DNA of 64,000 nt from positions 6,620,509 through 6,684,508 of the forward strand of contig CM082586.2 of assembly GCA_040954595.2 (NCBI GenBank), given 5' to 3'. This stretch comes from Balanoglossus misakiensis (Eukaryota > Animalia > Hemichordata). Below, piece by piece: positions 8,786-47,028 of this stretch. The translations under genes and the position numbers were made by a program. The notes under the pieces were generated by a model. That model had not been told where the DNA came from, did not search any database, and saw only the letters and a list, made by a program, of their open reading frames with translations. Position 1 is the stretch's first letter; each line of letters opens with the position of its first letter.

Positions 8786-9671
8786 TCATAGTCCCCTCTC
8801 CATAGCGTTGTACTCCTGAGCCCAGCAGCCTTTGAAGGAGTTCAGTCTGACATCGATTTCACCGTCTTCCAACTGAAAAGCAAGACAAGACAAAACACGA
8901 CAGCTGTCAGTTGCACGCACATGATCGATTCCCACTCTGAAAACACATAGGGGGAATATCTTTGTTAAAGGTATACGGTCACCTAAGGAAAATTAGCTAT
9001 AGTTACCATGGCAAATTGAGATCTAGCCAATCACAGATTTTCAGTGGGTGGCACACGCGAAAAAAGGGCGCCACCATGTGTTCTTTAGAACGCTTAAATA
9101 CGCCATTTCTGCCATATATGGGCCTATGTAAATTGGAGGTGACTGTATACCTTTAATCTTGACGATACAAGTCAGAACCTAGAATGGGTATGTGTCCATG
9201 TCAGTCGGTGCAAACCACAACTCACCTCATCAAATGCATACAGCTCCTTGTAGCACCTCTGTGACATGCAGGTGCGCACACACCTGGTTCTTGTAATCCC
9301 CGCTGGAATATTGGAACACTCTTCTGTCTTTTCACACCGGTTTCGCTCGCCTTTATACCGTCGCTCCTGTATGGAGAAAGGAGTACGAAATCCGAGAATT
9401 CAGTCTAAATTTGCATGTGTGGTCAAGGGTCAAACAAATGGCCATAAATATTTCAATATATGAAATAATAACTATTAATGAAATGAACGAACATACGAGT
9501 TACTGATGTACACATACTCACCATTTTTGGCTTTTTTCGATAGCTGTAGCGTGGAAATTCAAACGTTTTCCCATATACAATTAGACACAGGTCTAAAAGG
9601 ATGAATAACAAGAGGCAAAGTGCCAGTTGTTTTACCATCTTGCATCTCGACAATGACATCATCATATGCAT
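8786..9671 (-). CDS. Small secreted Cys-containing protein, DUF4787-like, 3 coding exons, ~115-125 aa
   Basis: Exons 9671-9522, 9366-9226, 8872-8786 join in phase 0. It has a signal-peptide-like LALCLLLFILLDLCLIVYG and the motif CVRTCMSQRCYKELYAFDELEDGEIDVRLNSFKGC, which I recall from DUF4787. The start Met is uncertain. Confidence 0.8.
8969..9152 (+). mobile_element. Kolobok-like MITE (family C), TTAA target site
   Basis: TTAA-AGGTATACGGTCACCT...AGGTGACTGTATACCT-TTAA with AG..CT termini. An inverted copy lies at 33988-34161, with degraded pieces at ~19050-19180 and ~26190-26335. Confidence 0.85.
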
Positions 9672-10455
9672 GGTAGGATTTCAACTGCTGGCTTGGCCGG
9701 AGAATGTCTGGTGTGCGAGATGGAGGGACACCTCATACAACAACAAACCATTCTTTCAATAAAACCATTTCCTAGAGGTTTAACATATCAAAGTTAAGAC
9801 AGGGTACTAATTACCTCCAGAGTCCAGCATTTACGCATATGTACATCTCATGCCCAATGTTTTCGTGCTACTGCGGCTAGCCTGCGATTCAAATTCACTT
9901 TCAGATGTGGGCGCCCAGACGAAACTGTAGTTAGCCTCAGACTCAGAATACTAGTAGGGCTACAGATCCAATTTCAGTTGGGGCGCCCTCTGATACGTTT
10001 ACAGTACACAGAATCATCCTTGTCTTTTTATACCAAAAAAACCTGCACGATACACAAAGATTTTCTAGAAAAAACAAGAGAAGATAAGAGCTTTATTTCT
10101 TATTCTTTAATCAATATATGTCATGAAATCAACAGTTTTAAAAACTGGTTAAAGTTACAAAACAATGGTTTTAATATTGAGAAAATCATCCTTATGCTTT
10201 CTGAATCAATCTTGCTTTGTTCAATAAAAATTTACAACTTGGCTACAATAAATAAACAAGAAATTGATGGCAGTGTGTTTGATACTGCAACCAAGAATAA
10301 AAGACACCAGTTTCGCTGCTCTGACAAATTATATCCGTTCCCGATCACTGAATTCAGCCACAGAGGTGAAAGGACAACACACTGGTTTCCATTCCTCAGT
10401 CATACAGAAATACAGGCAGGGTTCTCACTGTAAAACGTCCCAGCTGCGGCCTGCG

Positions 10456-13400
10456 CTACCTCGGCTGTTGCAGTTCATCTGACGGCTGCAGTTCTCCCGC
10501 TTGTTGCTGCGATTCACTGGATGTAACACTTTCCTGATCATCTAACTCCTCCTCCTCGTCTTTCTCTTCTTCCCCATCATCCTCTTGCCTCTCAGACGAT
10601 TTCCATTTCGCGCTTCTCTTGCTGAACGTCGACATGGCCTTTTCGGCACCCCTCTGTCTCAAAGCCTTTATGAAGTGAAGTCTCACCAGCCCAGCATTGC
10701 CACCGCTCAACAACCACTGATGACTGCCCAGATTCGGGTTCCAACATATCTAGCGCAGGTAAAAAGCCAACAATTAACATATACATTCAGAGCATAGCCT
10801 GTATTCTCACCTTTTCAAATACCAAACAGCTACAATATGCTGTTGCGAAAGAAGATCAACTGTCCACGAAATGTAATTTGTATCATTTTCATGAGTTCAA
10901 CATAGCTTTTCAGTAAAATGTAAATTCTGAGTGTCTCTAGCACTTACCTTGTTCACTGATTCCACCGGAAAGTGATCTGGTTTGGGGTGTGCTTTCAGGT
11001 TGTCTCCATGCACCCTCTGGAAGGACTTGCTTTTGTGAATCCCAACAAAGGATGTCTGGGATGATAAGAGAGAAAACATTAAGAGTGAGAGTTGGGGGAG
11101 TTGGAAGGGAGGGGATGGGAGGTAGAGAGGGAGAGAAAGACAGACATTTTTTAAAGTAATGCACTTTTTCAGCAACTAAAACAACACGCACATACTCTAA
11201 TATATATTATTATTTTGATGTTTGATATGCGGAAAATAATGCCATAAATATTAAAACAAGAAACTCACCAAATTAGCATCCTGATAAACAAGGCAGTAAT
11301 CGTCATGCAGCCCAGCATAGTCGCTGGGAAGTTGGTCTTCATGAGTTTCTTTCGTGATCTCCCCCTGGACAGTGGATTCACTTTTGCATTTGGTGTCAGT
11401 ACTCTTGTCCGCACTGCAAGTATTTGCATCAATATTCTTATTCCCTTCAGAAGTGGCAGTTTGATTTCCGACGGATGGACAATCCAAGTCTCCATTCCTT
11501 GTGGATTTCGCTGCAATGTCAGGATTCTCAGATGACAATGCATGGCTGTTCCGGACATCACCTTCCCCCATAGTGTAATTTTTCACCAAAATTTCCTGAG
11601 TTTGGTTCGGGAGGTGCTTGTGCAACTTTGCCTGCGCTGTTGTACTCGTCTTCGCAACCTGATCACATGTTCTGCCACTCTGACTGAAGCACTGACTTTT
11701 CTCGTTTGTGGCACTACCATCTTTGCTTTTTCCCTGAGTGCACTTATCTGCAGATTTAGTGTCATCTACACTCCACACATTGACAGGCTTGTCCATGTTA
11801 TTCACCAAGCCTTCAGACTTGCTATCTTCAGTCGCTTCTTTGTCGTCTGACAAACACTCTCTGCCTCGTTCACTAGTTCTGCCTGAGTTTTCTGAGCGTT
11901 GTAAATGTCGATCGGTACGCAAGGACCTTGGTGATATTGTAGTTCTGCCGCTATTGTCATCAGCAGTTCTATTTCCTCTGCAATTATCACAATCTCTTTT
12001 GTCCTCATTTAAGAGTTGATCACCATCATTACACGATCCTGCTTTATCCGTAGTCTTTGACTCGACTTTGTCGGTAGTTCTGTTGCAAGTAAAACAATCT
12101 TGCCTGTTATTCACAGCATCACCGCTGGCATCATCATTTGTCATCACATTGGTTTGATCCCGCTCATCCTTTTTTGTTACCAAGGCAACAGTTTCCTTTT
12201 CTATTTTTCCCTCCTTCACACTTGTCTCTCCATCCTTAGCACCCGTGTCCAATGACGTCAGCTCGTCTCTACTTTCTGCCTCCACGGATTCCTGTCCGCC
12301 TACTTTATTTGCAGCATCTGTTTCCATGACTACAGTTTCCATGGCAGTCCCATCGGCAGAAATCGCTGCTTTCTCTTGAGCAGTATCGTTCACTGCGTCG
12401 GATGCAATCGTTTCTGTGTCTCTCTTCACGATGGATACGGTGTAGATAGGCTGGCAGAAAAACAGATCAAAATACAACATGTGTCAATGATCATTCTGGT
12501 CTGTCACAAACAAGTTGCTATGAGAATACACCCTTTTCATAGGCCTATAGCACCCTCATGCAGCCATCTTGAATTTGAACTCAACACAAAGCCAATGGGG
12601 AATGTTGGCCAATCACATCAATGGTGTTTCGCTTTGAGTTCAAATTCATGATGGCTGCGTGAGCTATCGACTACTGTAAAGGGTGTATGACCTCTGGCTA
12701 GTTTTGCTATGACCTCCACCTTACTGTTGTAATGAATACAGCATCACCCAAATTCTTGCTTTCTTACAGATAGATACAAGTTTATTTTCTTTCGGACACA
12801 GCTTCTGTATCATGTTCATACTTACAAATCTTCTTCTATATGTTCCTTTGGTGTATACGTTAAATCTATGTACATCGGGAAGAACAACACCTAGAACATG
12901 CCCAAGACTGTCACTAGCTGTCAATGTGTTCAGCCACTCAGAATAAGATAAACTCTGTTGAAAAAAGGAACATTTCCTTAGTCAGTACCGGTACCTTTAT
13001 GTTAATTCTCTCAACATAAATTTAAGAGAATGATTTTACTATAACGAAAAGATGAGAGGAAATTATACACTCTTTTCAAAGATGATAAGTCCTTAAAAGT
13101 TTTTGAAAATTACCACATAGCGAAAGACACTACTTGCTTCCTATTTTGAACAATGCTTTAAAATTGATAAAAGATTTACATTAAAAATTACAGCTAGAAA
13201 TAGTTTTCATGGGATACTTAATCCCAGCATAGTACTCTCTGTTTAATACTCACCCAAATACATGCATTTATAATGGTCAGATTAATTGGTTTCTGCTCAT
13301 GGAAGCCCGTTTCAACCCAGTGAATACCAACATGACTATGGTTTCCAGTGCTGTGAACAAAAAAGAACCCCAAATCAGACTTCCGTTTTCAATGTGTTCA

Positions 13401-16400
13401 TTTCCTCAAGGTTTGGACTGAACCATGGTGGTATAAGGGTTAAAGTATTCTTTCTTTCTTCTGCTGCAAAATTTTAAGCCACAAATCTAATTCAGTAATC
13501 TGCACATGAAATATGCTATTCACAAATCGAATTGAGGTTCTGCACATGATATCAGCTATCTCAAAAATTCTAGACAACACAGTAATACTGTAAAACACTT
13601 TATTTTCGCGAGCATTTAATTTTCGCCAAATACGCGAGAGCCAAAATAGCGTGAAAATAAAAAGTCGCGTAAATTGCTTTTGAAGATAACGATGCAGTGA
13701 ATGAAATAAGAGAACGCAAAAATTAATACTCGCGAAACAGTGGCCTCTCTCGATATCACGAAAAATCTGACTCGCGAAAATAAAGTGTTTTACAGTATAA
13801 CAGGCACTATTCACAAATCTAATTAAGCTTCTGCACATGATATCAGCTATCTCAAAAATTCTGGTCGACACAGTTATGTGTGTGTGAGAATTTCCAAGCA
13901 ACTTACACCGAGTTATCCTGGCCGACACAACAAGCATTCCAATGAGCCGGCCAGAGACACTGCATCAAGAGACCGACTTGGACGCTGTTCACGGGACTGG
14001 ACGTGTTCCTCAGATCCCAGAACTTCAAGTGGCGGTCAGCGCCGGCCGTACTGAGGAACGTCTCGGCCATCGTGCACCAGGAGATGCCGGAGACATAGCT
14101 GAGGTGCGCCCGGAAGATGTGGTATGGGTAAAAGGTGTCCATCGGCGTGAGAGGGGGAGAGGTTTTTAAGAGAGGGGACGAGGTCGTGAGATCCCAGAGT
14201 GCGACATTACCTGTGTAGAAAAATACACATCATGTTGATTAGATGGGATCAGTTTATCATTTCAGTGAACAAGAAAAAGTGAAATAAAATATCAGGAAAA
14301 AAGATGTTTTAAATTAATAGTTCTCTTTCAATTACACATACTAGACAAAAAATTATTACAAGACATTTGCATGAACTCACCCCCATGGAACCCAGCTGCA
14401 ATTTTACGATGATGTATGTCTGATGACCATTCCACACACAGACACTGCTTATCGACAGGAAAGCCTGACTTTGGGTTGGGTTCCAACACTGCACATGGCT
14501 TGACTGTGTACACTGATATATACAACAACAAAATCAAATTGGAGAGACTAATAAAGTACCACTCAAGACCCCAAAAGCAAGCTGCCACTTTTAGCATATA
14601 TATTTTTAACAATGAAATACTTTTATCTATCATCTTTATCAATATAGTCAAGGGATGACATAATGTTGAATTTATGGAGAAAAAGGACCATGAGCAACCA
14701 CTTTTAGCATATTTTTAACAATAAAATATTTCAATCTTCTCTTTAGTCAAGGGGTGACATAATTTCGGATTTATGGACACGAGATACTATTGTACATGTG
14801 GGCATACAGAGTCCCTGGAGGGACAATGATGCATACCATGATAGTTACTCTTTTCCTAGTGGAAATCTAACCTAGTGTATCCGTGTCTTCATTCCGGATG
14901 TTGTGTGGATGTGGAATAGACAGTATCCTGAGCCTGCCATCGGAGCACGCCAAAGCCAACAGACCCAGCCGGGACACTGCCTCATTCCCAGGCTGTTCAG
15001 GGTCTTCCCATCCTCCACTGGGGCACCACTTCATGTCCCATATGCTGCCGTAGTCGTGAGCAATGCCAAGGCTGAGGTTAGGTGGTTTATCCGGCCTGTT
15101 AGAATTATAAAGTATATATTAATTATCAGTCTCTCCAGATGCAAGAGTTGTTGTAAAATATTTGTAGTAAATATACTGAGTTGATAGTTACTAGATAATC
15201 AATGAAAGAAACTACCATTTTCATGTTATTTAGAAAATGCCTACCTAAAGGGTCAGTAACAATATGCTGATCCCATATTACTTATAAACTTACATTGCAT
15301 TCTTCAGTACTCCAAAGTTCCACAGCTGAATCAACCCGTTCCCGTGGTAACTCTTCTCACAGTGGTGTATATCCTGGTAGTTCCTATGGCAACTAATCGC
15401 AGCAAACTGATTGGCTGTGCTGCTGACACCCAGTGGTAATGGACACCAAGTCATGGACCAGATAGGACCCCCAGCATAGAACACGATTGATTTGTTTTCT
15501 AGAAAAAAAGAATTTGTAAGATTTTTAAACAAGATTGATTTGGTTTCTAGATTTTTATACACTGGAACCCATAGCAACTCAATGTAGTCTGACGGCCACA
15601 ATTTTCCAGTTTTTTCAAATGACAAAATCACTTGTACATTATGACATATTGGGCAGGGGTCCAAGTATGGTCAACACCCTTAGTATATATTAAATCCAAT
15701 CTATGATTCATCACATAACACACACTCAGACAACTGGCTAGGGAGAACAGCTGTACTCATCTTTACAGACTGCTGTATTTTCATTTTACATTCATCAACA
15801 CACTCTGTCTGAGATGCCGATAATGATGCTTAAACAGTGTATTATGTATTTTAAGCTCATAAATATTTTTACTTACTATTGTCTAGGTGAGAACCATATC
15901 TGGGTAGTCTAATCTGGCTGCTTGCTTCAATGTTCTCCACTTCAACTTGGAATGTCATGGACTCTTTACTTACTGGCTCAAACACCTCACTATCACTGTG
16001 TGAAGAAAAAAAAACACCCACAAACCCAGGGGTCGCTATCAAGTTTAAATGTAAAGGTTGTCGTTTCATTTCTCATACAGATAGAAACTTAAGAGTTCAC
16101 ACCAAAATCCAGATCAATATTTCCATATTCAAATATTGCTGTCCTAGGAAATTATCACAAAAAAATATAAATTACCTTTTAGAAACTTCAGTCCAGTCAG
16201 AACTTTTAGGTTTCCAGTCCGAGTGTACTGTTACCCCAAAATATCTTGAATTCCTGTCAGTTAAAAAAATATTATTTTGTTGACAAATACTTTTTAGCGC
16301 AAGACTGTGACTGGTGCCTTCACAGACCCCAATAGCAAGCGCTTACACAAAACACTGAAGCATTTTTGCAAAGTCTGTGAGACACTGATTCTGGCAGGTT

Positions 16401-19400
16401 CTCATAATGGATAGAGAAAGAATTCTACCTTTCCAATAGCATGTTTCCAAATTGAGAAAAAAAAACATTATTGGAGATAACTTACCTCTGCACACTCCAG
16501 TTCACCACGTCAGGCAACGGTATCAGCTTAGAATCAAATTTCTCCCGGGGGCCATACGCCCTCCTGGAAGGTCTTCCCTCTTCATCGTTATCATCTGGGG
16601 TGGGATCAAATGAATGATGTCAAAGGAATATTACAGAACTGTTTTTGTTTGTGCGAGTTGCACTTTTAATTGCAGATAGCCTTCTGAGGCAACTGTACAT
16701 ACTGCATTTCCTTTATACAGTATATACTTGATTTCATGGCCTTTGTCAGTTTCTAGAAGCAATGCCGTCTTAATTACCTTCATTAGGTGTGGCTAAGGAA
16801 TCATCCGAAGCTTCGCTGTCGTAACTGTCGTCGGAGTCACTCTCTGGGAAGGCAAATAATTCCTGAGAAGTAGAGGAGCAGAAATCAGAGTCACACAGAA
16901 TTCTTCAAGTGTTTTATTGAAGTTAAGAGGAACCATACTGCACTATATTTGACACTGAGGTTGACTTTTAGAATCTTCCGACAATGGAAGGGCTCTTTAA
17001 CCCTATTCACCACCACGATTTGGTCCAAATCCATAGTTTTCTAGGGCGAAGCTTGACTTCTACATAGGAAAATGGCAGTGAAAGGATTAAAACTGAACAT
17101 TTATTTTATTCGCCACTTTCACCCAGTCACACTTTGACGCCCTGTGCTGAATGGGCAAAAGGTTATGGAAGCAGAACACTAACGTCCTTATGCTGGGCTT
17201 GGATGTGATACTTCACTGCTGGCTCGGTGGAATACTCTTTGCTGCATATCAGGCATTTGTAGTTATCCAGGGTGAGACCGCTCTATTGAAGGAATGCAGA
17301 ATATGTTGAGTTAGATCAGGAAGTTAGAGCCCCATGAGCTGCCAAATTTCACATATTTTTTTATCACAATAAAATTCTTCAGATCTCCTTTAGAATCATC
17401 ACCATTAAGCCATATCACTTGTCAGTTTGTCATAGTGGCGATGCAATACCACGATAGTTGTGTATTCTTTTTATGGAAACCGATTAAACTGATAAACTCT
17501 ATATTGCATTTACTGTGAAGTTGCATTGGTAGAGTGTAGGTTATGGTTACACACTGACTGATCATTCCACATGTACAACAAATTTTTCCTCAAAAAAAAC
17601 TTTCCCTTTAAGACAGGTGACATGATTTGCTTTACCACGCCTACCATTCTAGACTCTCTCTTACCTTTGGACAAGAGGCATAGTGGAATTTGATAGAAAC
17701 GATATTGGTGTAATTCACAGAGCAGCCTTTATAAGGGCACACCAATTTGCCGTCCTTCTTCAGTTTATCTCTCCATTCAGCCATTAATTCTTTGGGTGCT
17801 GTCGGCCTTTCCGGTTTTGTGTAAAGCGGCTGCAAGGAAGACAAAATACATGTACTGAAATACTTCATATTCCACAAAATACATGTACTGAAATACTTCA
17901 TATTCCATAAAATACATGTACTGAATTACTTCATATTCCACAAGATACATGTACTGAAATACTTCATATTCCACAAAATACATGAACTGAATTACTTCAT
18001 ATTCCACAAAATACATGAACTGAAATACTTCATATTCCACAAAATACATGTACTGAAATACTTCATATTCCACAAAATACATGAACTGAAATACTTCATA
18101 TTCCACAAAATACATATACTGAAATACTTCATATTCCACAAAATACATGTACTGAAATACTTCATATTCCACAAAATACATGTATAGTACTGAAATACTT
18201 TATATTCCACATAGGATATACATGTAGCACTCACAGATGGCCAGTCTAAAAAAACTTATAGTCACTGTAGTGAAAGTGAGTACTTGCCACACTATTTTCG
18301 AATAGATTTCTTCAGATTATTTGACGATTTTATTTGTTTGCTTGAGGAACATTTGCATTGAAGTTCAGGTTTTCATTCCACGATGATGTAGACTAACAGA
18401 CTGAGTACTAGTATTCTGCTGGTATGTTGGCCAGATATCACATGATGAGTTTTCAGTGTTCGGTTGTTGTTCAGGTGAGGTACAACATCAAGTAAGTAGA
18501 TATAGAAGAGGAATTACCCTACTCCAGTCTGCTACCATGGCGTCGGGATCTCTATCCCTCTTCTTCTTGGATTTCTCATCATCTTCCATGACTCCGGTTT
18601 CAGCAAGCTTTTGAACCTTGGAGACGGCTCTAAAAGAATTTTGAAGCAAACAAACTTTGTCAGAAGGCAGTAAGTGTGACATCTTGGTGGGCATGGCAAC
18701 CATACAACAAACAAATAGCAGCTCAGAAATATACATGAAGTGCATTACTTACTTGATGGCTGCCTGTCTTCTAACTCTACCAGATGGTGATATGAACTGG
18801 GGATCAGCACCCTCAGCTTTTTCAGCTGCTTTCTTCTTTCTGTTTTCTATTTCCTCTGCGCTCGGTGGCTGTAATAGTTGAACAGAATGCAGAGATCTTA
18901 GTATGGGAAATTTGCGTGTTAATTACAATGAATGATAAAAGAGGCAAAAGTTACCCTATGGTCTTCATTACTACTTGTGTTCTTACAGAGCTCTACATAC
19001 TAATAACACTGATGCCGAGAATTTTGAATTGCACTTTCACCTTTGGAAATCTAGTTACTAAATTGAGATCTTGCCAATTACAGTGTCACACACCAAAAAG
19101 TGCACCACCACCATCATTGGTTATTACTAGAAAACTTTGACCCACCCTTTTAACTATATATGGGCATATGTAAATTAGACAACATCCTTACCTCTGGGTG
19201 TATACTTTGCATGTGGTATTTAAGACCAGCATTGCTGTTGTAGACTTTGGAACATTTCTCACAAGCGTACTACAAAACACACGTAGAGACAAGAAAAAGA
19301 TATAAAAATCAGTGAACAGAAAAATTCCGAAACTACGTTTTTCTCATTTATATCCAAAATTCACTGTCTTATACCAGTATTGCATTTACTTGGAACAGTG

Positions 19401-22109
19401 ACGCTAGTATGTTTAGTAAGAATGTGAATTAAAGTTTATCATAGTCTTTGTCTATTGTTTATATGCAGTGAACGACAGATCTACAGAAGTCATCTCCAGC
19501 ACTGATTGCAACCACAGCATCAGAAAATCAGAAAATCTGTGACTTTGTCTTACCTCTTCAACATTTGTTTTTCCACATCTCTTGGTGTGATACTGATAAC
19601 CTGTCAGTGTTGTGAAGGATTTCGAGCAACCCTGTGGAATGCAAATTCAATATTTTGCTGAAAACACAAACCTGAACTTTAGTGCAAATTTAACATATTA
19701 TACAATGTACAAGTGAAGTCATGTGCTCAGATAGCTTGTTTATGGGAAATAATTTCATTGATGAGAAAGTTTTTTTTACCTCTGTAGTACATCTTAATTT
19801 TCCGCATTTCTTAAGGATAGCTCGAAGGACAAGCTTCTCATTGACTTCATCCGACTCACTACTCTGGCTTTCGTCTTTCTGAAGGTTAAAAAATACACAG
19901 AGAGTACTATTTACATGCTTTGTTAAGAGGTTTCAAAGTGGGAAATGCAACGTTTTCCTTGTATTTTGCATTTTCCCCATGGAGGCAGCCATATTCCTTT
20001 ATTATTTATCTGATTAAAACTTGTATATGCACTCACACTTATAGTTTATAATTATTGTAAATACTTCATTGCATACACCTGTATGGGCTAATGTTGGTAT
20101 GATTTGAAATTACATTTCATGGTAATCATCCAAAAGTTACAGGACACAGGGCTTTGAAAAGGCACAGAGCAGTATATCCTGTACTTACCAGCTGTGTTGT
20201 TGTATGCTGCGCCATCAAGTGGTACTTGTAGCCAGCTGCCGACTGGAATTCTCTTGGACAGTGCTGACATCGGAAATCAAATGACTGTGATAAGATAAGG
20301 TCAAAAAGTACTGGTATTAGGGTGAAAATAAGCTAGACAGGCCAAATGTCATTGGTTACTGTCATCTGTTACAATTTATAGCAAATTTTGATGATTATGA
20401 GTTGTTATCAACACTCTGCAGTAATGATACATTGTCGTTCGTGACCATTTTGTGGCTTAATGTTCTATCTTTGTAGCGGGAATATGTAGAATCCATTCAA
20501 CTGTTCCTCATTTTTCATCTATTCAAGGTACATAATTATTGCAAGTATCATCTCACAACAAGCTCCACATCAATGAAACATCTCTCGCGCCAAATCTTCT
20601 CCTTACCGACTTCTCAACACACTCCAAGTAGTGTTTCTCTATGCTGGAGATTTTATTCCTTGAACTGAAACACTTCATACACTTGGCCTCTCCAGTCTCA
20701 GCAATCTGTTCCGCCCATAACTTCTTGGCTGTGTTGATATCTATCTTTTTATGTTCTTCTTTGGGAGTCTTGTTTTCTAAACCATCCTGTTGGTCTTTCT
20801 CTTTCTATTTATGATTGAAAAACAAGCAATGCACAAAACTGTATGAATTCCAACCACATTTCTATTCATTTCATTTCACAGATTCATGTATACATGTACT
20901 AAATTCACAATTGACTGTACATTTTGTGTGTGTGTGGAGGGGGGGGAGGTCAAAATATCACCAAAATTTTAAGATGGCACAGGTGAGAGACAATCAATTT
21001 TTAAGGAATTTTGATTTTTCCTGTAATATATTTTTTATGACCAATGATTTCAAATTTCAATACATTACAAAGGCATAGTAGCCCACTCACACTTTTTCAT
21101 TAATTAACAGATGCTCTGTATAATCATGCCAATAGAAAAATCCAAAATGCCTTATCTTAATTACCATTTTTTTCAAGCACTCATGATAGTGCTTTTCTAT
21201 GCTGGCCATCTTCATTCTTCTGTTCCTGCATATGTCACACTTGGCGTACCCATCTTGCTCGATCTGTTCAGTCCATCGCTTTCTCTTTTCTCTCATCGCG
21301 TCGTCAACATCATTCCCCTTGTCCTCCGCATCCACTGTGCTCTCCAACACATCATCTCCTGAAACTCTTTTCCTCTTATTTTTCAGTGGTCTACCCGCTA
21401 CCCGTCTGGTGGTAGGTGCCCCATCTGTGCCACTTTTCTGCTTTCTTGTGTAGCGTCTTCGCTTTGGGTTCTTCTCCAAGTCGGGCAGTGCGCTTTCACT
21501 TGCCGACGGGCTGTCACCCGATGATTCACAGGTTTTCCTTTCCTTTACTGAGAGTTTTAACACTTTACAGTTGCTTCCCGATTCTTCAGAATCTGCTGGG
21601 GTCTGTGTGACTCTTCTTTTCCTGCCCCGCCTGCGTCCCTTTCCCTGCGCCGGCGTTCCTTTCTCCTCATCACGTGTCTTCTGCTCAATCGCATCCACAC
21701 CCATCTTTTCCACCTCCCTCTCCTGACCTTGGCTGACCTCTGATACCTCCGATGACCTTTCTGCAACCTTGGCACCAGATCTTCCTGCCACATCTTCTTC
21801 GCTTTTACGCAAATTTTCATCGTTGGTGAGAGTGGCCTTAATTGCTGGAGTTTCCACTGACAAATTATTCTGGACAGCCACATCATCCTCACATTTCTCA
21901 GAACCAGTTTCAGTTTTTCTCTGCAATCTTGTCTGTCGAGTTCCTTTAGCACTTGGTGATGCCTCTGACTTGGCCTTTTTAGGTTCATCTTCACTAACTT
22001 TAGGCGTCTTCTGGGATGTTGGTGGATCACCACCATAACTTTCAAGTTTCTCTTTGATTCGTCCACTCCGCCTTCTGATTGGATAAGATTTCTTAGGCTT
22101 GTCAGCCAT
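10456..22109 (-). CDS. GTF3C2: TFIIIC110/GTF3C2 WD40 subunit with an in-frame N-terminal ZNF512-like zinc-finger array; 23 coding exons, ~1683 aa
   Basis: Exons (5'->3'): 22109-21165, 20804-20607, 20284-20189, 19878-19780, 19631-19554, 19269-19192, 18868-18753, 18629-18518, 17829-17665, 17282-17184, 16862-16778, 16594-16486, 16253-16176, 15995-15877, 15498-15294, 15095-14872, 14512-14381, 14210-13907, 13350-13254, 12954-12826, 12450-11269, 11055-10948, 10749-10456. All are GT-AG with compatible phases. GTF3C2 motifs: FYAGGPIWSMTWCP, GSIWDMKWCPSGGWE, RLGLLALACSDG, WNPNLGSHQWLLSGGNAGLVRLH. ZNF512-like motifs: CQHCPREFQSAAGYKYHLMAQH, GYQYHTKRCGK, PSGRVRRQAA, YKCLICSKEYSTEPAVKYHI. Confidence 0.88.
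12529..12685. mobile_element. Palindromic MITE (family D), TA-flanked
   Basis: Ends CACCCTTT...AAAGGGTG. Inner arms GCAGCCATCTTGAATTTGAACTCAA / TTGAGTTCAAATTCATGATGGCTGC. Confidence 0.7.
13588..13795 (+). mobile_element. Tc1/mariner-like MITE (family B) copy 2
   Basis: Same TIRs and body as 5965-6172, with TA flanks. It sits between two ~70-bp direct repeats (~13517-13584, ~13807-13876). Confidence 0.9.
17001..17086. mobile_element. piggyBac-like mini-MITE (family E), diverged copy
   Basis: TTAA-CCCTATTCACC...GTGAAAGGA-TTAA. The body resembles 39286-39370. Confidence 0.65.
17842..18211. repeat. 33-bp minisatellite, ~11 copies, intronic
   Basis: Unit CAAAATACATGTACTGAAATACTTCATATTCCA. It abuts the acceptor of the exon starting at 17829. 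Confidence 0.95.
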
Positions 22110-22744
22110 CTTGATGACTCATACCACAATGTCTTCCAATCAAATCATTCCTTAAAAAAAAAAACATGCGAAGTTGAGCAAGACAGAACAATTTATTTTA
22201 AAAATGGATATGTTGAATAAATGTACTTGATATGCTAGATGGTTTACAGTCTAATTATTTTTACATCCAATTTTCTTAGAACGTTGGGGAAATCTCTACC
22301 ACATACACTTGAAACAGGACAATTATTTGTTTTTGCTTTCTAAACTATAATTGGTACTTGTGTAAATTATTGCAATTGCCCAGACAAAATTATTGCCCAT
22401 TTTTCAACAAATGTAAATAATTTAAAACAGATAAACTTAAAGATTTACAAATATACTGTTCGAGTTGAAGTAGGGATGTTGATACGTTTCTCATCACATA
22501 TTCGAATTTGATGAAGAAGATATCACTGAAGTGACAATTTTATACTGATTTAGTGATTAGAAATTTTGAAACCTCGGATCATTCAACGCGTGATGTGTAT
22601 TTCTCCTGTCCGTGTTGTGAAAACCGCCGCTGAAATATGATTTTGGAGACAAAATTGAGAAATGTCTGTATCTAAATGAAAATAAAACGACAAAGAAACA
22701 CGAGGGTCAGGTTAAAAAAAGATAAATGGGCATATCACCTGACG

Positions 22745-22842
22745 AAAAGGCCCCTACCAGGTCTCGAACTCACGCAATCCGTGTGCAAGTACGTCCCAGT
22801 TCAGAGCGAAATGCGCTATCCTCTTTCCCAAGCGGTTGGGTC
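22745..22842 (-). promoter_or_regulatory. Pol III type-2-like cassette (degenerate A-box, B-box, T4 terminator) in the putative GTF3C2 5' leader
   Basis: On the minus strand, TGGGAAAGAGG-ATAGCGC starts at 22830, GAGTTCGAGACC spans 22771-22760, and GGGGCC-TTTT follows. A candidate donor CAG|GTGATA lies at 22739/22738. Confidence 0.5.
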
Positions 22843-22849
22843 AAAGGTT

Positions 22850-23100
22850 ACCAAACTCTCGAAAATTCTCGTCTGTCATTAATGTGCATATGCTCGCGCT
22901 GTCGCGGTAAACAGTCCCAATTATTGATCAGCTGCATACTATAGTGGCAAGATAAATCTGTGTATCATTTTGAGTTGAGACTCGGAGATGTTAAGTATAG
23001 TTTAAACAAAATTTGGAGTAGGTCACGTGATTATCTAACGAGAACAATTTCAAAATGGCGGGCATCATTGATGTTTCAAAGAGGTAAAAGTGAGCACTGT
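22850..23100. promoter_or_regulatory. Putative bidirectional promoter of GTF3C2 (-) and MED30 (+)
   Basis: The genes are head-to-head with ATGs about 1.1 kb apart. E-box GTCACGTGA at 23022-23030 and YY1-like CAAAATGGCG at 23051-23060. Confidence 0.6.
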
Positions 23101-23188
23101 TGTTGATCAACTCGACTGTGCGCTTCCAGATGTAGGAGACACCTTTTTGCAAATCAGAATCAAAAACCAAAGAGTAGACGTCGCTCAG

Positions 23189-24407
23189 ATGGCTTCCCAT
23201 GGTCATCAGGCGCCAGCTGGCGGCCCAGGTACAAGTGGGCCTGCACCGACGAGAGAAGTGAATACAGCTTCATTGTGCCGAATAGGACAGGAAACAGTGC
23301 AAGAGATCGTCAGCAAAACAGCAGATATATTTAATCTACTGAAAAACACCCCGGTAAGCAGGCATATTGGTAAAATTATAACTTTGGCGTCGTTGCCATG
23401 GAGACACCAAAGGTCTGCGGTAGCTCCATGGCAACTGCGACTCTATTTCAATGTATTGTTTTCCATCATTTCACTTTTTTTTCTCCACATCATCAGTACA
23501 TGTATGTGTAGTATTATGGTTTAAAGGAGAGGCCAGCTTGTGTCTGACATTACAATTTATCGGATTAAATCGACAATATTGTAGATTGATTTTAACTTAC
23601 CCACATGAACCAGCTGCCTGTGCAATCTTAATATGTGAAACAACAGAAACGCTTGCACAAGTATTGCAGCCTTTACCACACAGTCAAATGTTCTCTCTGA
23701 AATGCATTTCCTTGTCTATGTCTGGCTTATCCAGTTGCCAAACGGCATGCCACCAGCCACGCCCACACACCAAGAGAGACAAGCCAAGTTACACGAACAC
23801 ATGAAGAGTCTGGTGGTTCTTTTCAAGAAGTTAAGACTGGTGTATGAGAAATGTAATGAAAATTGCACTGGAATGGATACTGTAAACCCAGAGGTAAGAC
23901 AAACAGTTTTGATACGGCCAGGGAAAGAAAACATTGCTCCTCAGATTTCCTGGCCGGACTACAATTGTCTCATGTATGTATGTCTCATTGGTAGGATTTG
24001 ATACCGTGGGCTGAGGATGGTACTGAGTCTAAATTGGATTTAATAGTTCCCAACTCGGATAAGCTGTATTTCGTAAAAGAAGAGCACAAGGAAATGTATG
24101 AGGTAAGTTTTGATTACAGGAGATTGGCAACAATGTGCTAAAAACATGCCAATTTTGGTCAGTGCAGAAAAGGAGCTGTGTTTATATACTCTTTTGTTTG
24201 TTTCCAGTTTTTCACAAAAAATGAATGTTCAAAAGATTCGAGGATTGTAAAAATATTGTAACAGCCATGTTTGTCATGATTTGCCAACAGAAAATCCAGG
24301 CTAAAAACCACCAACTGAAAGAGATTATGGATCAACTCAGAAGCCTGATGTGGGATTTGAATACTATGCTTGTGATGAGTAGGACAGTGCATGGACCGCA
24401 ACACTGA
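23189..24407 (+). CDS. MED30: Mediator subunit 30, 4 exons, ~182 aa
   Basis: Exons 23189-23353, 23735-23893, 23995-24102, 24291-24407. Motifs REVNTASLCRIGQETVQ, LFKKLRLVYEKCNENC, KNHQLKEIMDQLRSLMWDLNTML. Confidence 0.96.
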
Positions 24408-26549
24408 GGGCATCATATTTCGTGATATCCATATGTGAGTGACAATGGGAATCTGTCGGATTTATGTTTGTATGTTGGACGCAGGACTGTTGTCTTGAAT
24501 GAATTGAGGGACAAGAGATGCTACCACAACAGTGACTGTTAAGATTGTTGTTGTGCAGAGTAGACCATGCTGGCCGAGATAATGATGAGTATGATGATGA
24601 TGATGATGAAGTTGATGATCATAATGACGTCGACAATGATGACGAAGATGATGATCATCATGACCGTGATGGTGTTTTTTTTTTGTTACAAAAATCCCAG
24701 AAAACTTTCCTTCCTTGTGCTTAAGTTTTTGAAGAAACAGGACAGCTATTCTTATGCATATATAATATTGGAAATATATTACTGTTATTGAAACTCTAAG
24801 ACCGCGTCTGTCATATTCTTATAAGCTATGAACAAGAGAAATTACTAGATGCACCCTAAGTGTACAATGAGGGTTTGTGGCAATAATACACATGATGACA
24901 ACATATAAAACTTGATTACATTCTTTATTTCAACACAAAGACAACACATTTTGAAGCCATCCAATGCAAAATAACATACAGACATGTAAACTACAGAGAA
25001 CAATAAGGATCTACTTTCGGTTATTTGTTGATAATCAATCAACAGACAAGTCCTAGCACACAATTTGATTGCACTATTTACAAAGGAAAGACTTGCCCAT
25101 TTAAAGCACCATCATGCTACAGTTCCAGGTACACAGTCGCATTTATTTGTACCAATGTCAAATGCATTACTTTGTCCTTGCACAAAGTCAAGTGCATTAC
25201 AGTAATTCTACACATGCCAGGGATCAAGTGAATTAATATGTACTTCAATTTAAACGATTTTTTTCCAGTTGCAGCACATTTTACCAGTCTGCACGGCATA
25301 CGACAGATCATTCCTGTCCATCAATACAGTCCAGGAATGGTATACTATTACGTACTGGTGATGAAGAAACCACTTATAGATAAAATCACATGATAATGTA
25401 ATTCATGAATATACTGTAGTCTGTAATTTGGAAGAATACATCCTGGGATATCCCATGAATGAAAATTTACACGCGTGACTCTCTATTCCTACTTTCCTGA
25501 ATTTTAACATGATAAATATTTTGAAAGCCAAGACACAGATAGAGGTGTTTAGCTTGTTCGCTGCATTAAAATTAATCAAATCTGCATTATGAATTTTTAA
25601 CAGTGGATAGTCTAGTAGCTAATGCAGTTATTTGCTCACACATTTGATTTGGTGTACATTGCTCAAATCAGTTAAATTTTAAGTTTTATTTTTGAGCTGT
25701 AGTACTAACTTAAACTTACTCTGTGGAAATTGGCACAAGTTTGTAAGACTCAATCAGTGTGCCTTGGTTGCAAAACTTGGCATGGAATAAATACTACATC
25801 TAACTTCTTCATCAGCTCAATTTGGCCCAATCAAATTCACTTGGCAAATTCATTAAATAAAATAATTTGATATTCATGACTCCCAATACTTTCTTCGTCA
25901 GCAGTAAATATTTTCTTTCATCAAAAAATAATATTGTCTTTTTCAAAATAAGTACATTTCAAGAAAATTAATCTTGATATATTGAGTATGGCTATGAGAG
26001 GATATGTACTCTAAAAATCGTAGGGTTATATTTCAGCCGGAAAATGCATCTTGGTAATTATCATAGTAATTACAATTAAATTACTCTCAAAGATGTATTA
26101 CCTGAAATTCATCCGCAATATACATGAAGCTATATCTGTACAGAAACATTTAATCTTACATTTGATAATTTGTAACTCAAAGCCCGGCCACAGCAGAAAG
26201 TTTAGATCTAACCAATCACAGATTTTCACTTGGGTAGCCATGCAAAAAGGGGTGCTACCATCACATGGTTATTATAAGACTTACACAAGCCATTCTAACT
26301 ATATCTGGGCATATGTAAATTAGAGGTGACTATTCAGGTACTAAACCCCATTCATCAACAGATTTGTACTCATTATGGAGAAAGAATACTGCAGTCCCTG
26401 AATATCTGATACACGAGTGTCCCCCCTCACTGGTGTAGTAGAGTCCAATCTCACTGTATGTAATGCTACGGTTGGACCTTTACACTTGGAAATAGGGATA
26501 AAAAAACAAATGTCACTTGGGTACATAGATGTATCTTTGAATAATAGAC

Positions 26550-45699: not shown

Positions 45700-47028
45700 A
45701 TGGCTCTCAAGTTAGGCGACTCCGCAAAACACCCGTCCACGTCGACGATGAAGACGGTCGTAAAAGCGTGCGTGTACGACGACTACGAGGTGCTGGATAC
45801 GTTGCTACGCGACGGCAGCGTCCACGTCAACGCGCACATCCTCTTCGATAACGTGCAGAAGCTGGAGAAGTACTTCCAGTATAATCTTGGAGATAAGTTG
45901 AAGAAGGTTACACCGATTCAGATCGCGGCGAAGCTGGGAAGTCCCAAATGCATGCGGGCGTTGCTGCAGCACGGCGCTAACCTGGACATCGCGATGCCCT
46001 ACTTCTCGCCGCTGGCGATCGTCTGCCGGTCGCTGCCGAAAAGTCCCGAGTACATGGGCCGGTTTGAGGAGTGCATCATGATGCTGGTCGAAGCCGGGGC
46101 GGATTTGACGCACCTGCAGTCGTGCGCCTCCCCCGTCACGGGGTACGGATCGCTTCTGCATCTCCTGGTGAACAACAAGATGAGCGTGGGTCTGATGCAG
46201 ACGGTCGTCCGGCACGGCGTGGAGATCAACGTCACCGACTCGCGGGGGCAGACCCCGCTGCACTACGTCATGTTCCTGTCCGAGCCCATCGAGGTGTTCG
46301 TCCGGGCGCTCCTCGGCCTCGGCGCCGATCCGGACATGCAGGACGACGTCGGCTGCAGCCCGATGCTGTACTGCGCCTCTCACCAAGACAACCCGCGACT
46401 CCTGCAGCTGCTGTACGACGCCGGCGGCGACCCGAACATCACCGACCACTACGGCCAGAACGCCCTACACCTGGCGTGCAAACACCTGAAACTGGAAAGC
46501 ACGAACTTTCTAGTGGAGCGCGTGTTCGACATCAACGCCAGAACGTACAGTTTCAACACGGCGGCCAATTTCCTCCTCATGAAAGTGGCCGAGAACTACT
46601 GGAGCATGGTGGACAAAAACCGCGAGGTGGCGCTCTGCATCCAGAAGGTCCTCAACTACGGCGGGATCATCACGCGTTCGGTGGTCGAGGACCAGGCGGT
46701 GCGCTACCTGCAGAAGCTGCACAGAAACCACCGCGAGAGCTACCCACTGGAGATCCTGGGCATGGTCATCAACACCCACCCGCGCGTCGGCGTCGTCCAC
46801 CTCAAAGAGGAGCTGTCGACACTCACCCGTCCCCTACCGCCCAGGCTGGACGCCTTCTTCCGACAGCTGTGCGCCACGGAGAAGATACCGCGCCGCCTGC
46901 AGCATCTTTGTCGCTGCGCCATCCGGGGCTACATGGGAAGTCGGTGTCACCTGACGTTTTCTCACACCACCCTGCCGAGAAAACTGCAGTCGTATTTGGT
47001 ATTAGAGCCATCAACTGATATAACTTAA
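45700..47028 (+). CDS. Ankyrin repeat and SOCS box (ASB-like) protein, single coding exon, 442 aa
   Basis: Ankyrin repeats (TPIQIAAKLG, GQTPLHYV, GQNALHLAC) and a C-terminal SOCS box PRRLQHLCRCAIR...LPRKLQSYL. Strong GC3 bias. 5'UTR acceptor CAG at ~45619. Confidence 0.92.
   Translation: MALKLGDSAKHPSTSTMKTVVKACVYDDYEVLDTLLRDGSVHVNAHILFDNVQKLEKYFQYNLGDKLKKVTPIQIAAKLGSPKCMRALLQHGANLDIAMPYFSPLAIVCRSLPKSPEYMGRFEECIMMLVEAGADLTHLQSCASPVTGYGSLLHLLVNNKMSVGLMQTVVRHGVEINVTDSRGQTPLHYVMFLSEPIEVFVRALLGLGADPDMQDDVGCSPMLYCASHQDNPRLLQLLYDAGGDPNITDHYGQNALHLACKHLKLESTNFLVERVFDINARTYSFNTAANFLLMKVAENYWSMVDKNREVALCIQKVLNYGGIITRSVVEDQAVRYLQKLHRNHRESYPLEILGMVINTHPRVGVVHLKEELSTLTRPLPPRLDAFFRQLCATEKIPRRLQHLCRCAIRGYMGSRCHLTFSHTTLPRKLQSYLVLEPSTDIT

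Follow-up and report, generated by a model that had tools for sequence, protein, structure and literature searches.

A single reading frame in an acorn worm joins a ZNF512-type zinc-finger array to TFIIIC110, a likely ancestral form of the animal protein

Structure of the fused gene

We examined a 64,000-nt stretch of DNA from the acorn worm Balanoglossus misakiensis (GenBank assembly GCA_040954595.2, contig CM082586.2, forward-strand positions 6,620,509 to 6,684,508), referred to here as the window. A minus-strand gene extending from position 22109 to position 10456 contains, in one reading frame, a zinc-finger array of the ZNF512 type followed by TFIIIC110, the WD40 protein encoded by GTF3C2. 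The gene was rebuilt from the coordinates of its 23 exons. All 22 introns have GT-AG ends and range from 123 to 688 bp, and the coding sequence computed from the spliced exons (5,052 nt) has its sole stop codon at the end, corresponding to a protein of 1,683 amino acids (aa) and 188 kDa. An original prediction, made from the DNA letters alone, had proposed one polypeptide of about 185 kDa from 23 exons spliced in frame, and both the frame and the size were reproduced. A tblastn search within the window found the fused-gene sequence at a single locus. An AATAAA lies at 10097, 3' of exon 23. Upstream of exon 1, a CpG-rich stretch with no assigned strand (22501-23000; observed/expected CpG ratio (o/e) 1.17) is likely to act as a promoter shared with the neighbouring MED30 gene, and a donor-like site at 22757 may belong to the 5' untranslated region.

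A search with exon 16 as the query recovered P0001, an NCBI 'uncharacterized protein' of 1,725 aa from Ptychodera flava. The window protein and P0001 gave a single BLASTP alignment from the first to the last residue with 844/1767 identities (48%), and identity for individual exons was 52-74% except in two low-complexity ones.

Exons 1-10 encode the fingers. As predicted, there are seven: an extra C2HC at aa 291 and three C2HC/C2H2 pairs at aa 357/387, about 443/475 and 605/639. Exon 1 (21165-22109; all exons are on the minus strand) specifies aa 1-315, comprising a basic low-complexity N-terminus and the extra C2HC (aa 291-311), and is 36% identical to P0001. Pair 1 is divided between exon 2 (C2HC, 20607-20804) and exon 3 (C2H2, 20189-20284). 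Exon 4 (19780-19878) contains a linker helix and the beginning of the pair 2 C2HC, which continues in exon 5 (19554-19631), and the pair 2 C2H2 is in exon 6 (19192-19269). A GRxxRxAA-helix motif (aa 524-545) begins in exon 7 (18753-18868) and is completed in exon 8 (18518-18629; 74% to P0001), which also encodes a linker. Exon 9 (17665-17829) contains the pair 3 C2HC and exon 10 (17184-17282) the pair 3 C2H2, which is the final finger.

The TFIIIC110 part occupies exons 13-20, 22 and 23. Exon 13 (16176-16253) is the first part alignable to human TFIIIC110, and exon 14 (15877-15995) belongs to the core. The WD40 propeller is encoded by exons 15 (15294-15498), 16 (14872-15095), 17 (14381-14512), 18 (13907-14210; PF00400, E 3e-4), 19 (13254-13350) and 20 (12826-12954). 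Exon 21 (11269-12450) is a poorly conserved 394-aa insertion that is 31% identical to P0001 and has no Pfam match. A conserved C-terminal TFIIIC110 segment follows in exon 22 (10948-11055; 67% to P0001), and exon 23 (10456-10749; 52%) provides the last conserved segment, an acidic tail and the stop codon.

The two halves are bridged by two acidic exons, as had been proposed. Exon 11 (16778-16862) and exon 12 (16486-16594), the latter leading into the N-terminal extension of TFIIIC110, are in phase (0>1>2). Identity to P0001 at the junction was 55, 54, 53 and 54% for exons 10, 11, 12 and 13. As identity in the bridge equals that of the neighbouring exons, the bridge shows the conservation of coding sequence. 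The CpG o/e ratio at 16001-17500 was 0.33-0.58, compared to 1.17 at 22501-23000, and a scan of the window for CpG o/e found no CpG-rich island at the bridge or in intron 10. Unless a new exon is invoked, no Met follows the fingers before aa 766, which is within the part alignable to human TFIIIC110. The claim that no start, stop or promoter-like island separates the halves thus held for the spliced frame and for the CpG island; it is qualified by intron 10 (16863-17183), a candidate finger-only 3' end with a weak donor, a read-through stop and AATAAA sequences.

Orthology of the two halves

Over 327 aa the finger region of the window protein was 36% identical to milkfish ZNF512 (E 1e-63), and the alignment stayed colinear through the linkers. 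All nine vertebrate ZNF512/ZNF512B rows aligned at 30-38% identity over about 320 query residues (E <=1e-46), and the four best Atlas clusters for this half were ZNF512. The only finger structures matched were those of ZNF512 (2CTD) and of KIAA1196 (2GQJ), another name for ZNF512B. Exon 3 matched Pfam ZNF512_zf-C2H2 (PF21367) at 29.9 bits, above the cut-off of 27, and P0001 matched PF21276 at 28.4 bits, also above the cut-off. The colinear C2HC and C2H2 pairs, the conserved linkers and the GRxxRxAA-helix motif are features shared with vertebrate ZNF512/ZNF512B. In addition, C2H2 helix positions -1, 2, 3 and 6 are S-A-G-Y in pairs 1 and 2, matching most vertebrate rows. In a tree of the finger region each of four lineages formed one group: hemichordates (99/98), amphioxus (100/100), echinoderms (86/58) and vertebrates (93/82); Hydra, Owenia and P0045 were left out for poor alignment. 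Judged by these comparisons, the front half is a ZNF512 orthologue, which agrees with the family assignment first proposed.

The window protein differs from the vertebrate proteins in several respects. A WD40 domain is absent from 119 of 120 long vertebrate ZNF512/ZNF512B matches, whereas the window protein has one, and its fingers are best described as a pro-orthologue domain rather than a free ZNF512. ZNF512B has four finger pairs and an internal NuRD motif (PMC11602157). The pair 3 contact positions of the window protein differ from those of ZNF512/ZNF512B. The NuRD motif RK(x)xxPxK/R matched bat ZNF512B and was not matched in the window protein or P0001. Pericentric repeat binding and SUV39H recruitment by ZNF512/ZNF512B are reported for mammals (PMC13537249), the latter for the mammalian proteins only. 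A search for stand-alone invertebrate ZNF512 retained 1 of 2,836 candidates, a truncated Saccoglossus model; this search was word-based and insensitive, so that absence does not follow.

For the back half, the best PDB match of P0001 was human TFIIIC110 (8CLI chain C, E 1.4e-93), with the next match at 2.7e-10. A second aligned stretch, P0001 1573-1656 with human TFIIIC110 800-883, is the C-terminal segment closing the domain. The WD40 core and this segment of the Ptychodera orthologue thus align with human TFIIIC110/GTF3C2 (chain C of PDB 8CLI, 8CLJ and 8CLL; yeast tau91), and the window protein groups with P0001 in the WD tree. With the orthologous WD40 domain and the closing segment both found by alignment, the back half is assigned to GTF3C2/TFIIIC110, as originally proposed. 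Human GTF3C2 also retains the GRxxRxAA-helix motif and an acidic stretch ahead of the core. In contrast, 22 of 23 vertebrate GTF3C2 rows are without fingers, seven of which precede the core in the window protein, and the 394-aa insertion splits the C-terminal part of the window protein, unlike human TFIIIC110. Ptychodera, Glandiceps and Acanthaster also have long insertions at this site, where human TFIIIC110 has no more than about 30 aa.

Distribution of the architecture

A survey of other animals for the same architecture, which the original prediction had proposed, was carried out on 157 GTF3C2-like proteins (the best 150 of 515 HMMER representatives found with exon 16, together with the matches of the exon 16 search that recovered P0001). 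Ninety-five of them have at least 100 aa ahead of the WD core; a C2HC+C2H2 pair was present in 45 of these and some finger in 62. The carriers include sponges, cnidarians, an annelid, molluscs, arthropods, echinoderms and amphioxus. Among 30 proteins that were looked up, named carriers were the sponges Sycon and Oscarella, Actinia, Hydra, Owenia, Argonauta, Sinanodonta, krill, the crab Petrolisthes, the millipede Chamberlinius, the moth Chilo (28 fingers by pattern), the crinoids Anneissia and Antedon, the starfish Acanthaster and two amphioxus clusters; ticks were recovered by the exon 16 search that gave P0001. No tunicate, hagfish, shark, placozoan, ctenophore or choanoflagellate was recognised among the named matches. 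The parts came in a constant order (fingers, motif, acidic stretch, propeller), whether the protein was from a sponge, a cnidarian, a protostome or a deuterostome. P0001, Branchiostoma lanceolatum GTF3C2 (CAH1248446) and the Antedon (XP_071951373) and Sycon (XP_065190309) models have the architecture of the window protein; they are labelled uncharacterized or GTF3C2 only, and finger number varies.

Several entries probably derive from transcripts: the Oscarella fused open reading frame (ORF) carries the label 'type:complete', Sycon has a second fused entry differing by 1 residue, and a 1,519-aa fused ORF was found on ten Logan contigs of 4.7-5.5 kb. An Atlas query with the junction gave two arthropod-rich clusters (0.90 and 0.89), which are leads only. 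Because finger-plus-propeller models span sponges to amphioxus, the join is likely to be as old as animals.

Six TFIIIC110 proteins of 2,183-3,134 aa (P0062, P0086, P0087, P0108, P0129 and P0148) have 17-28 fingers by pattern, P0062 being that of the moth Chilo suppressalis. In fungi, Mortierella TFIIIC110 showed no finger. Spizellomyces TFIIIC110 has a single finger-like stretch similar to the ZNF512 C2HC profile (3.5 bits, shuffle maximum 2.4), and the three proteins nearest to it each have one (14-15 bits, shuffle maxima <=1.0); these four (P0099, P0116, P0146 and P0156) are leads only.

Separation of ZNF512 and GTF3C2 in vertebrates

The WD tree was computed with FastTree from 89 rows, 69 of the 157 proteins having been left out for short coverage or long span. 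Its 23 vertebrate rows formed a clade (support 1.0) that was sister to amphioxus (0.93). Fingers occurred in one vertebrate row, milkfish P0074, and the same protein was the one long vertebrate ZNF512/ZNF512B match with a WD40 domain. In lamprey ZNF512 and GTF3C2 are separate, and jawed vertebrates likewise have two genes. On these comparisons the split probably fell between amphioxus and lamprey.

The GRxxRxAA-helix motif, located between pairs 2 and 3, is present in every aligned invertebrate row and in ZNF512/ZNF512B. A profile built from 17 invertebrate rows was tested on 24 vertebrate GTF3C2 N-termini with 50 shuffles each. It matched 17 of them, each above all 50 shuffles: all 16 N-termini of at least 250 aa (8.4-23.1 bits; two come from a single lamprey cluster) and a shorter one of 153 aa. 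The seven misses were all <=150 aa, and the seven fungal-group rows all scored 2.2 bits or less. In vertebrate GTF3C2 the motif is 119-168 aa ahead of the WD core. Human GTF3C2 contains it, and by visual count its copy is identical to that of bat ZNF512B at about 16 of 24 positions.

Milkfish P0074 (XP_030628070) consists of a whole ZNF512 and then a whole GTF3C2, head to tail in one model. Its ZNF512 part aligned to the last residue of Hucho ZNF512 and its GTF3C2 part from residue 2 of Denticeps GTF3C2. ZNF512 and GTF3C2 are therefore head-to-tail neighbours in this fish, whether the model reflects read-through or a merge. In human, a single 417-kb interval contains both GTF3C2 and ZNF512, and ten genes are listed as lying between the two (PMC2570409).

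As the motif is present in both daughters, a single cut cannot explain the split, whereas duplication with reciprocal loss can. The shared motif and the milkfish join thus favour tandem duplication and reciprocal loss in stem vertebrates. The fused gene was probably duplicated in tandem at some point between the divergence of amphioxus and that of lamprey. The upstream copy would have kept the fingers and the motif and lost the propeller, becoming ZNF512 and later ZNF512B. The downstream copy would have kept the motif, the acidic stretch and the propeller and lost the fingers on either side of the motif, becoming GTF3C2. The earlier suggestion of an ancestral state later divided by gene fission thus stood as to ancestry and a split in vertebrates, whereas a plain cut does not account for the shared motif.

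Alternative explanations

Taken together, we consider it quite probable that the 23 exons form one frame in which a ZNF512-orthologous seven-finger array and the TFIIIC110 WD40 domain are made as one protein, that this is the ancestral animal TFIIIC110, and that the vertebrate genes arose by tandem duplication and reciprocal loss. Several observations weigh against this explanation. Scores of single window exons for Pfam ZNF512_C2HC (PF21276) were below the cut-off (E 0.028 for exon 2 and 0.0067 for exon 9). Pair 3 contact positions differ from those of vertebrates (N-V-S-F and T-P-A-Y), and protostome fingers diverge still more. Deep branches of the finger tree are unsettled, with the outgroup not confined to one side of a branch. 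No finger is present in 33 of the 95 proteins, among them many from vertebrates or fungi but also P0053, which belongs to the crustacean group. At about 22 aa the motif is short, and it is basic; a profile from vertebrate ZNF512/ZNF512B alone gave several GTF3C2 rows just 1-6 bits. Finally, the splicing of the fused gene is predicted from genomic sequence, and most of the named carriers are genome-based gene models whose predictors can merge neighbours, as milkfish P0074 may show.

The remaining adverse observations concern the boundary between the halves and bear on whether the locus gives one product. The intron 10 donor scores 6.9 bits, the lowest of the 22, read-through meets a stop after 6 codons, and the intron holds two of the six intronic AATAAA clusters (17110/17105 and 16918; 0.29 expected, P about 0.035, post hoc). 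Because of these features a finger-only isoform is possible, and intron 10 could terminate its transcript. The locus would then yield both the full-length fusion and, via polyadenylation in intron 10, a 668-aa ZNF512-like protein; the vertebrate split would have fixed a pre-existing alternative 3' end, a course compatible with the ancestral-gene explanation, and intron 10 sits where vertebrate ZNF512 homology stops. However, the AATAAA statistic is of marginal significance and was obtained only once the site had drawn attention, the donor is hardly below the next ones (7.0 and 7.3), and no finger-only P. flava model of <947 aa was found in a search of limited sensitivity. We regard a second product as conceivable but on the whole unlikely. 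A more radical possibility is that two adjacent genes merely share a frame and that the fusions in databases are gene-predictor merges. Saccoglossus is represented at NCBI by two models (698 and 468 aa), Branchiostoma belcheri has split models, Glandiceps P0010 is propeller-only, P0074 demonstrates that merges or read-throughs happen, and intron 10 contains an ATG with a 6.1-bit in-phase donor (17034-17010). Yet the Saccoglossus finger model breaks off partway through its last finger, and its contig and that of the propeller model are identical in size (586,993 bp), so the pair looks like a split annotation. The split models of B. belcheri carry accessions that follow one another directly, and another annotation of this species is fused (1,417 aa). 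In the acorn worm an intergenic gap would measure <321 bp with no rise in CpG; the evenly conserved bridge, the position of Met 766 and the uninterrupted fused ORFs on transcript-sized contigs also argue against two genes, which we consider very improbable. The window gene is one open frame and is likely to be manufactured as one protein.

Two further alternatives concern its history. A fusion specific to acorn worms, which the original prediction had left open, or many independent fusions would accommodate the wide variation among lineages in finger sequence and number (1 pair to 28 fingers). The identical order of parts across sponges, cnidarians, protostomes and deuterostomes and the recovery of hemichordate, amphioxus and vertebrate groups in both domain trees leave such fusions almost no probability, and the taxonomic spread already contradicts one confined to a single lineage. 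Plain fission in vertebrates, without duplication and with the motif convergent or re-acquired, has the appeal of requiring merely a new stop and a new promoter, and it yields the milkfish gene order; the shortness of the motif also speaks for it. A cut past pair 3, however, would give GTF3C2 no motif, since the motif is between pairs 2 and 3. Its presence in every long vertebrate GTF3C2 N-terminus, the likeness of the human and bat copies and the low fungal-group scores make plain fission improbable.

Implications for TFIIIC

The fingers, carried on the acidic linker, would provide TFIIIC with a second, sequence-reading DNA arm. This arm may hold the complex on selected B-box sites (tRNA genes, short interspersed elements and extra-TFIIIC sites) or on nearby repeats. 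We incline slightly towards such an accessory DNA-targeting role; the fused protein is a predicted subunit of the complex, and its fingers are predicted to bind DNA. The fused form might also recruit SUV39H, as is reported for the mammalian proteins, but we consider this doubtful. The physical link between satellite or heterochromatin targeting and TFIIIC that the original prediction had drawn from the fusion is hypothetical. TFIIIC has a barrier role at tRNA genes and extra-TFIIIC sites, and the role of the latter is described as undetermined (PMC12409998).

We can offer a broader scheme only tentatively, and consider it doubtful as well. ZNF512/ZNF512B might be the released DNA-binding arm of TFIIIC, and in most invertebrates finger-bearing TFIIIC might read repeats and recruit methylation of histone H3 lysine 9. 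One complex would then seed heterochromatin and set B-box boundaries, jobs that the vertebrate duplication would have separated. An alternative 3' end in intron 10 might yield a free ZNF512-like protein, and a chytrid-like single finger might push the link back before animals.

ZNF512B is described as vertebrate-specific in PMC11602157 and PMC13458389, and neither main text mentions TFIIIC or GTF3C. No description of the ZNF512-TFIIIC110 join was found in the open-access literature, subscription papers and supplements lying outside the search; the architecture is present in public gene models yet unremarked. Our results supply an origin for a family so far called vertebrate-specific. They suggest that the TFIIIC of most animals is likely to have a DNA-binding arm made of zinc fingers, which the human and yeast structures are unable to reveal, and they bear on how TFIIIC selects extra-TFIIIC and boundary sites among many B-boxes. 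The parts themselves are known, and the finding is of value for the evolutionary connection and the tests that it opens rather than for any uniqueness of this locus. Finger function in invertebrate TFIIIC110 and a common partner of the motif in human ZNF512/ZNF512B and GTF3C2 can now be tested directly.

Neighbouring genes and repeats

The MED30 gene (23072-24450, plus strand) is head to head with the fused gene across the CpG-rich stretch and has Pfam Med30 matches at 23192-23380 and 23762-23899. Downstream of the fused gene is a DUF4787 gene (9175-9680, minus strand; E 5e-11) whose product has a hydrophobic N-terminus. An RGRP-type AT-hook gave no match in the window protein. Intron 8 contains a 33-bp minisatellite (17841-18211; 11.1 copies, 94% matches) that abuts the exon 9 acceptor. 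Intron 18 contains an element resembling a miniature inverted-repeat transposable element (13582-13801) with 31-nt inverted ends (97%), flanked by 71-nt direct repeats at 13516-13586 and 13807-13877; this element accounts for a local CpG peak in the intron. Elsewhere in the window, a GAT trinucleotide repeat of 28.7 copies lies at 24578-24663, and G+C content reaches 0.62 at 46001-47000 compared to about 0.40 nearby.

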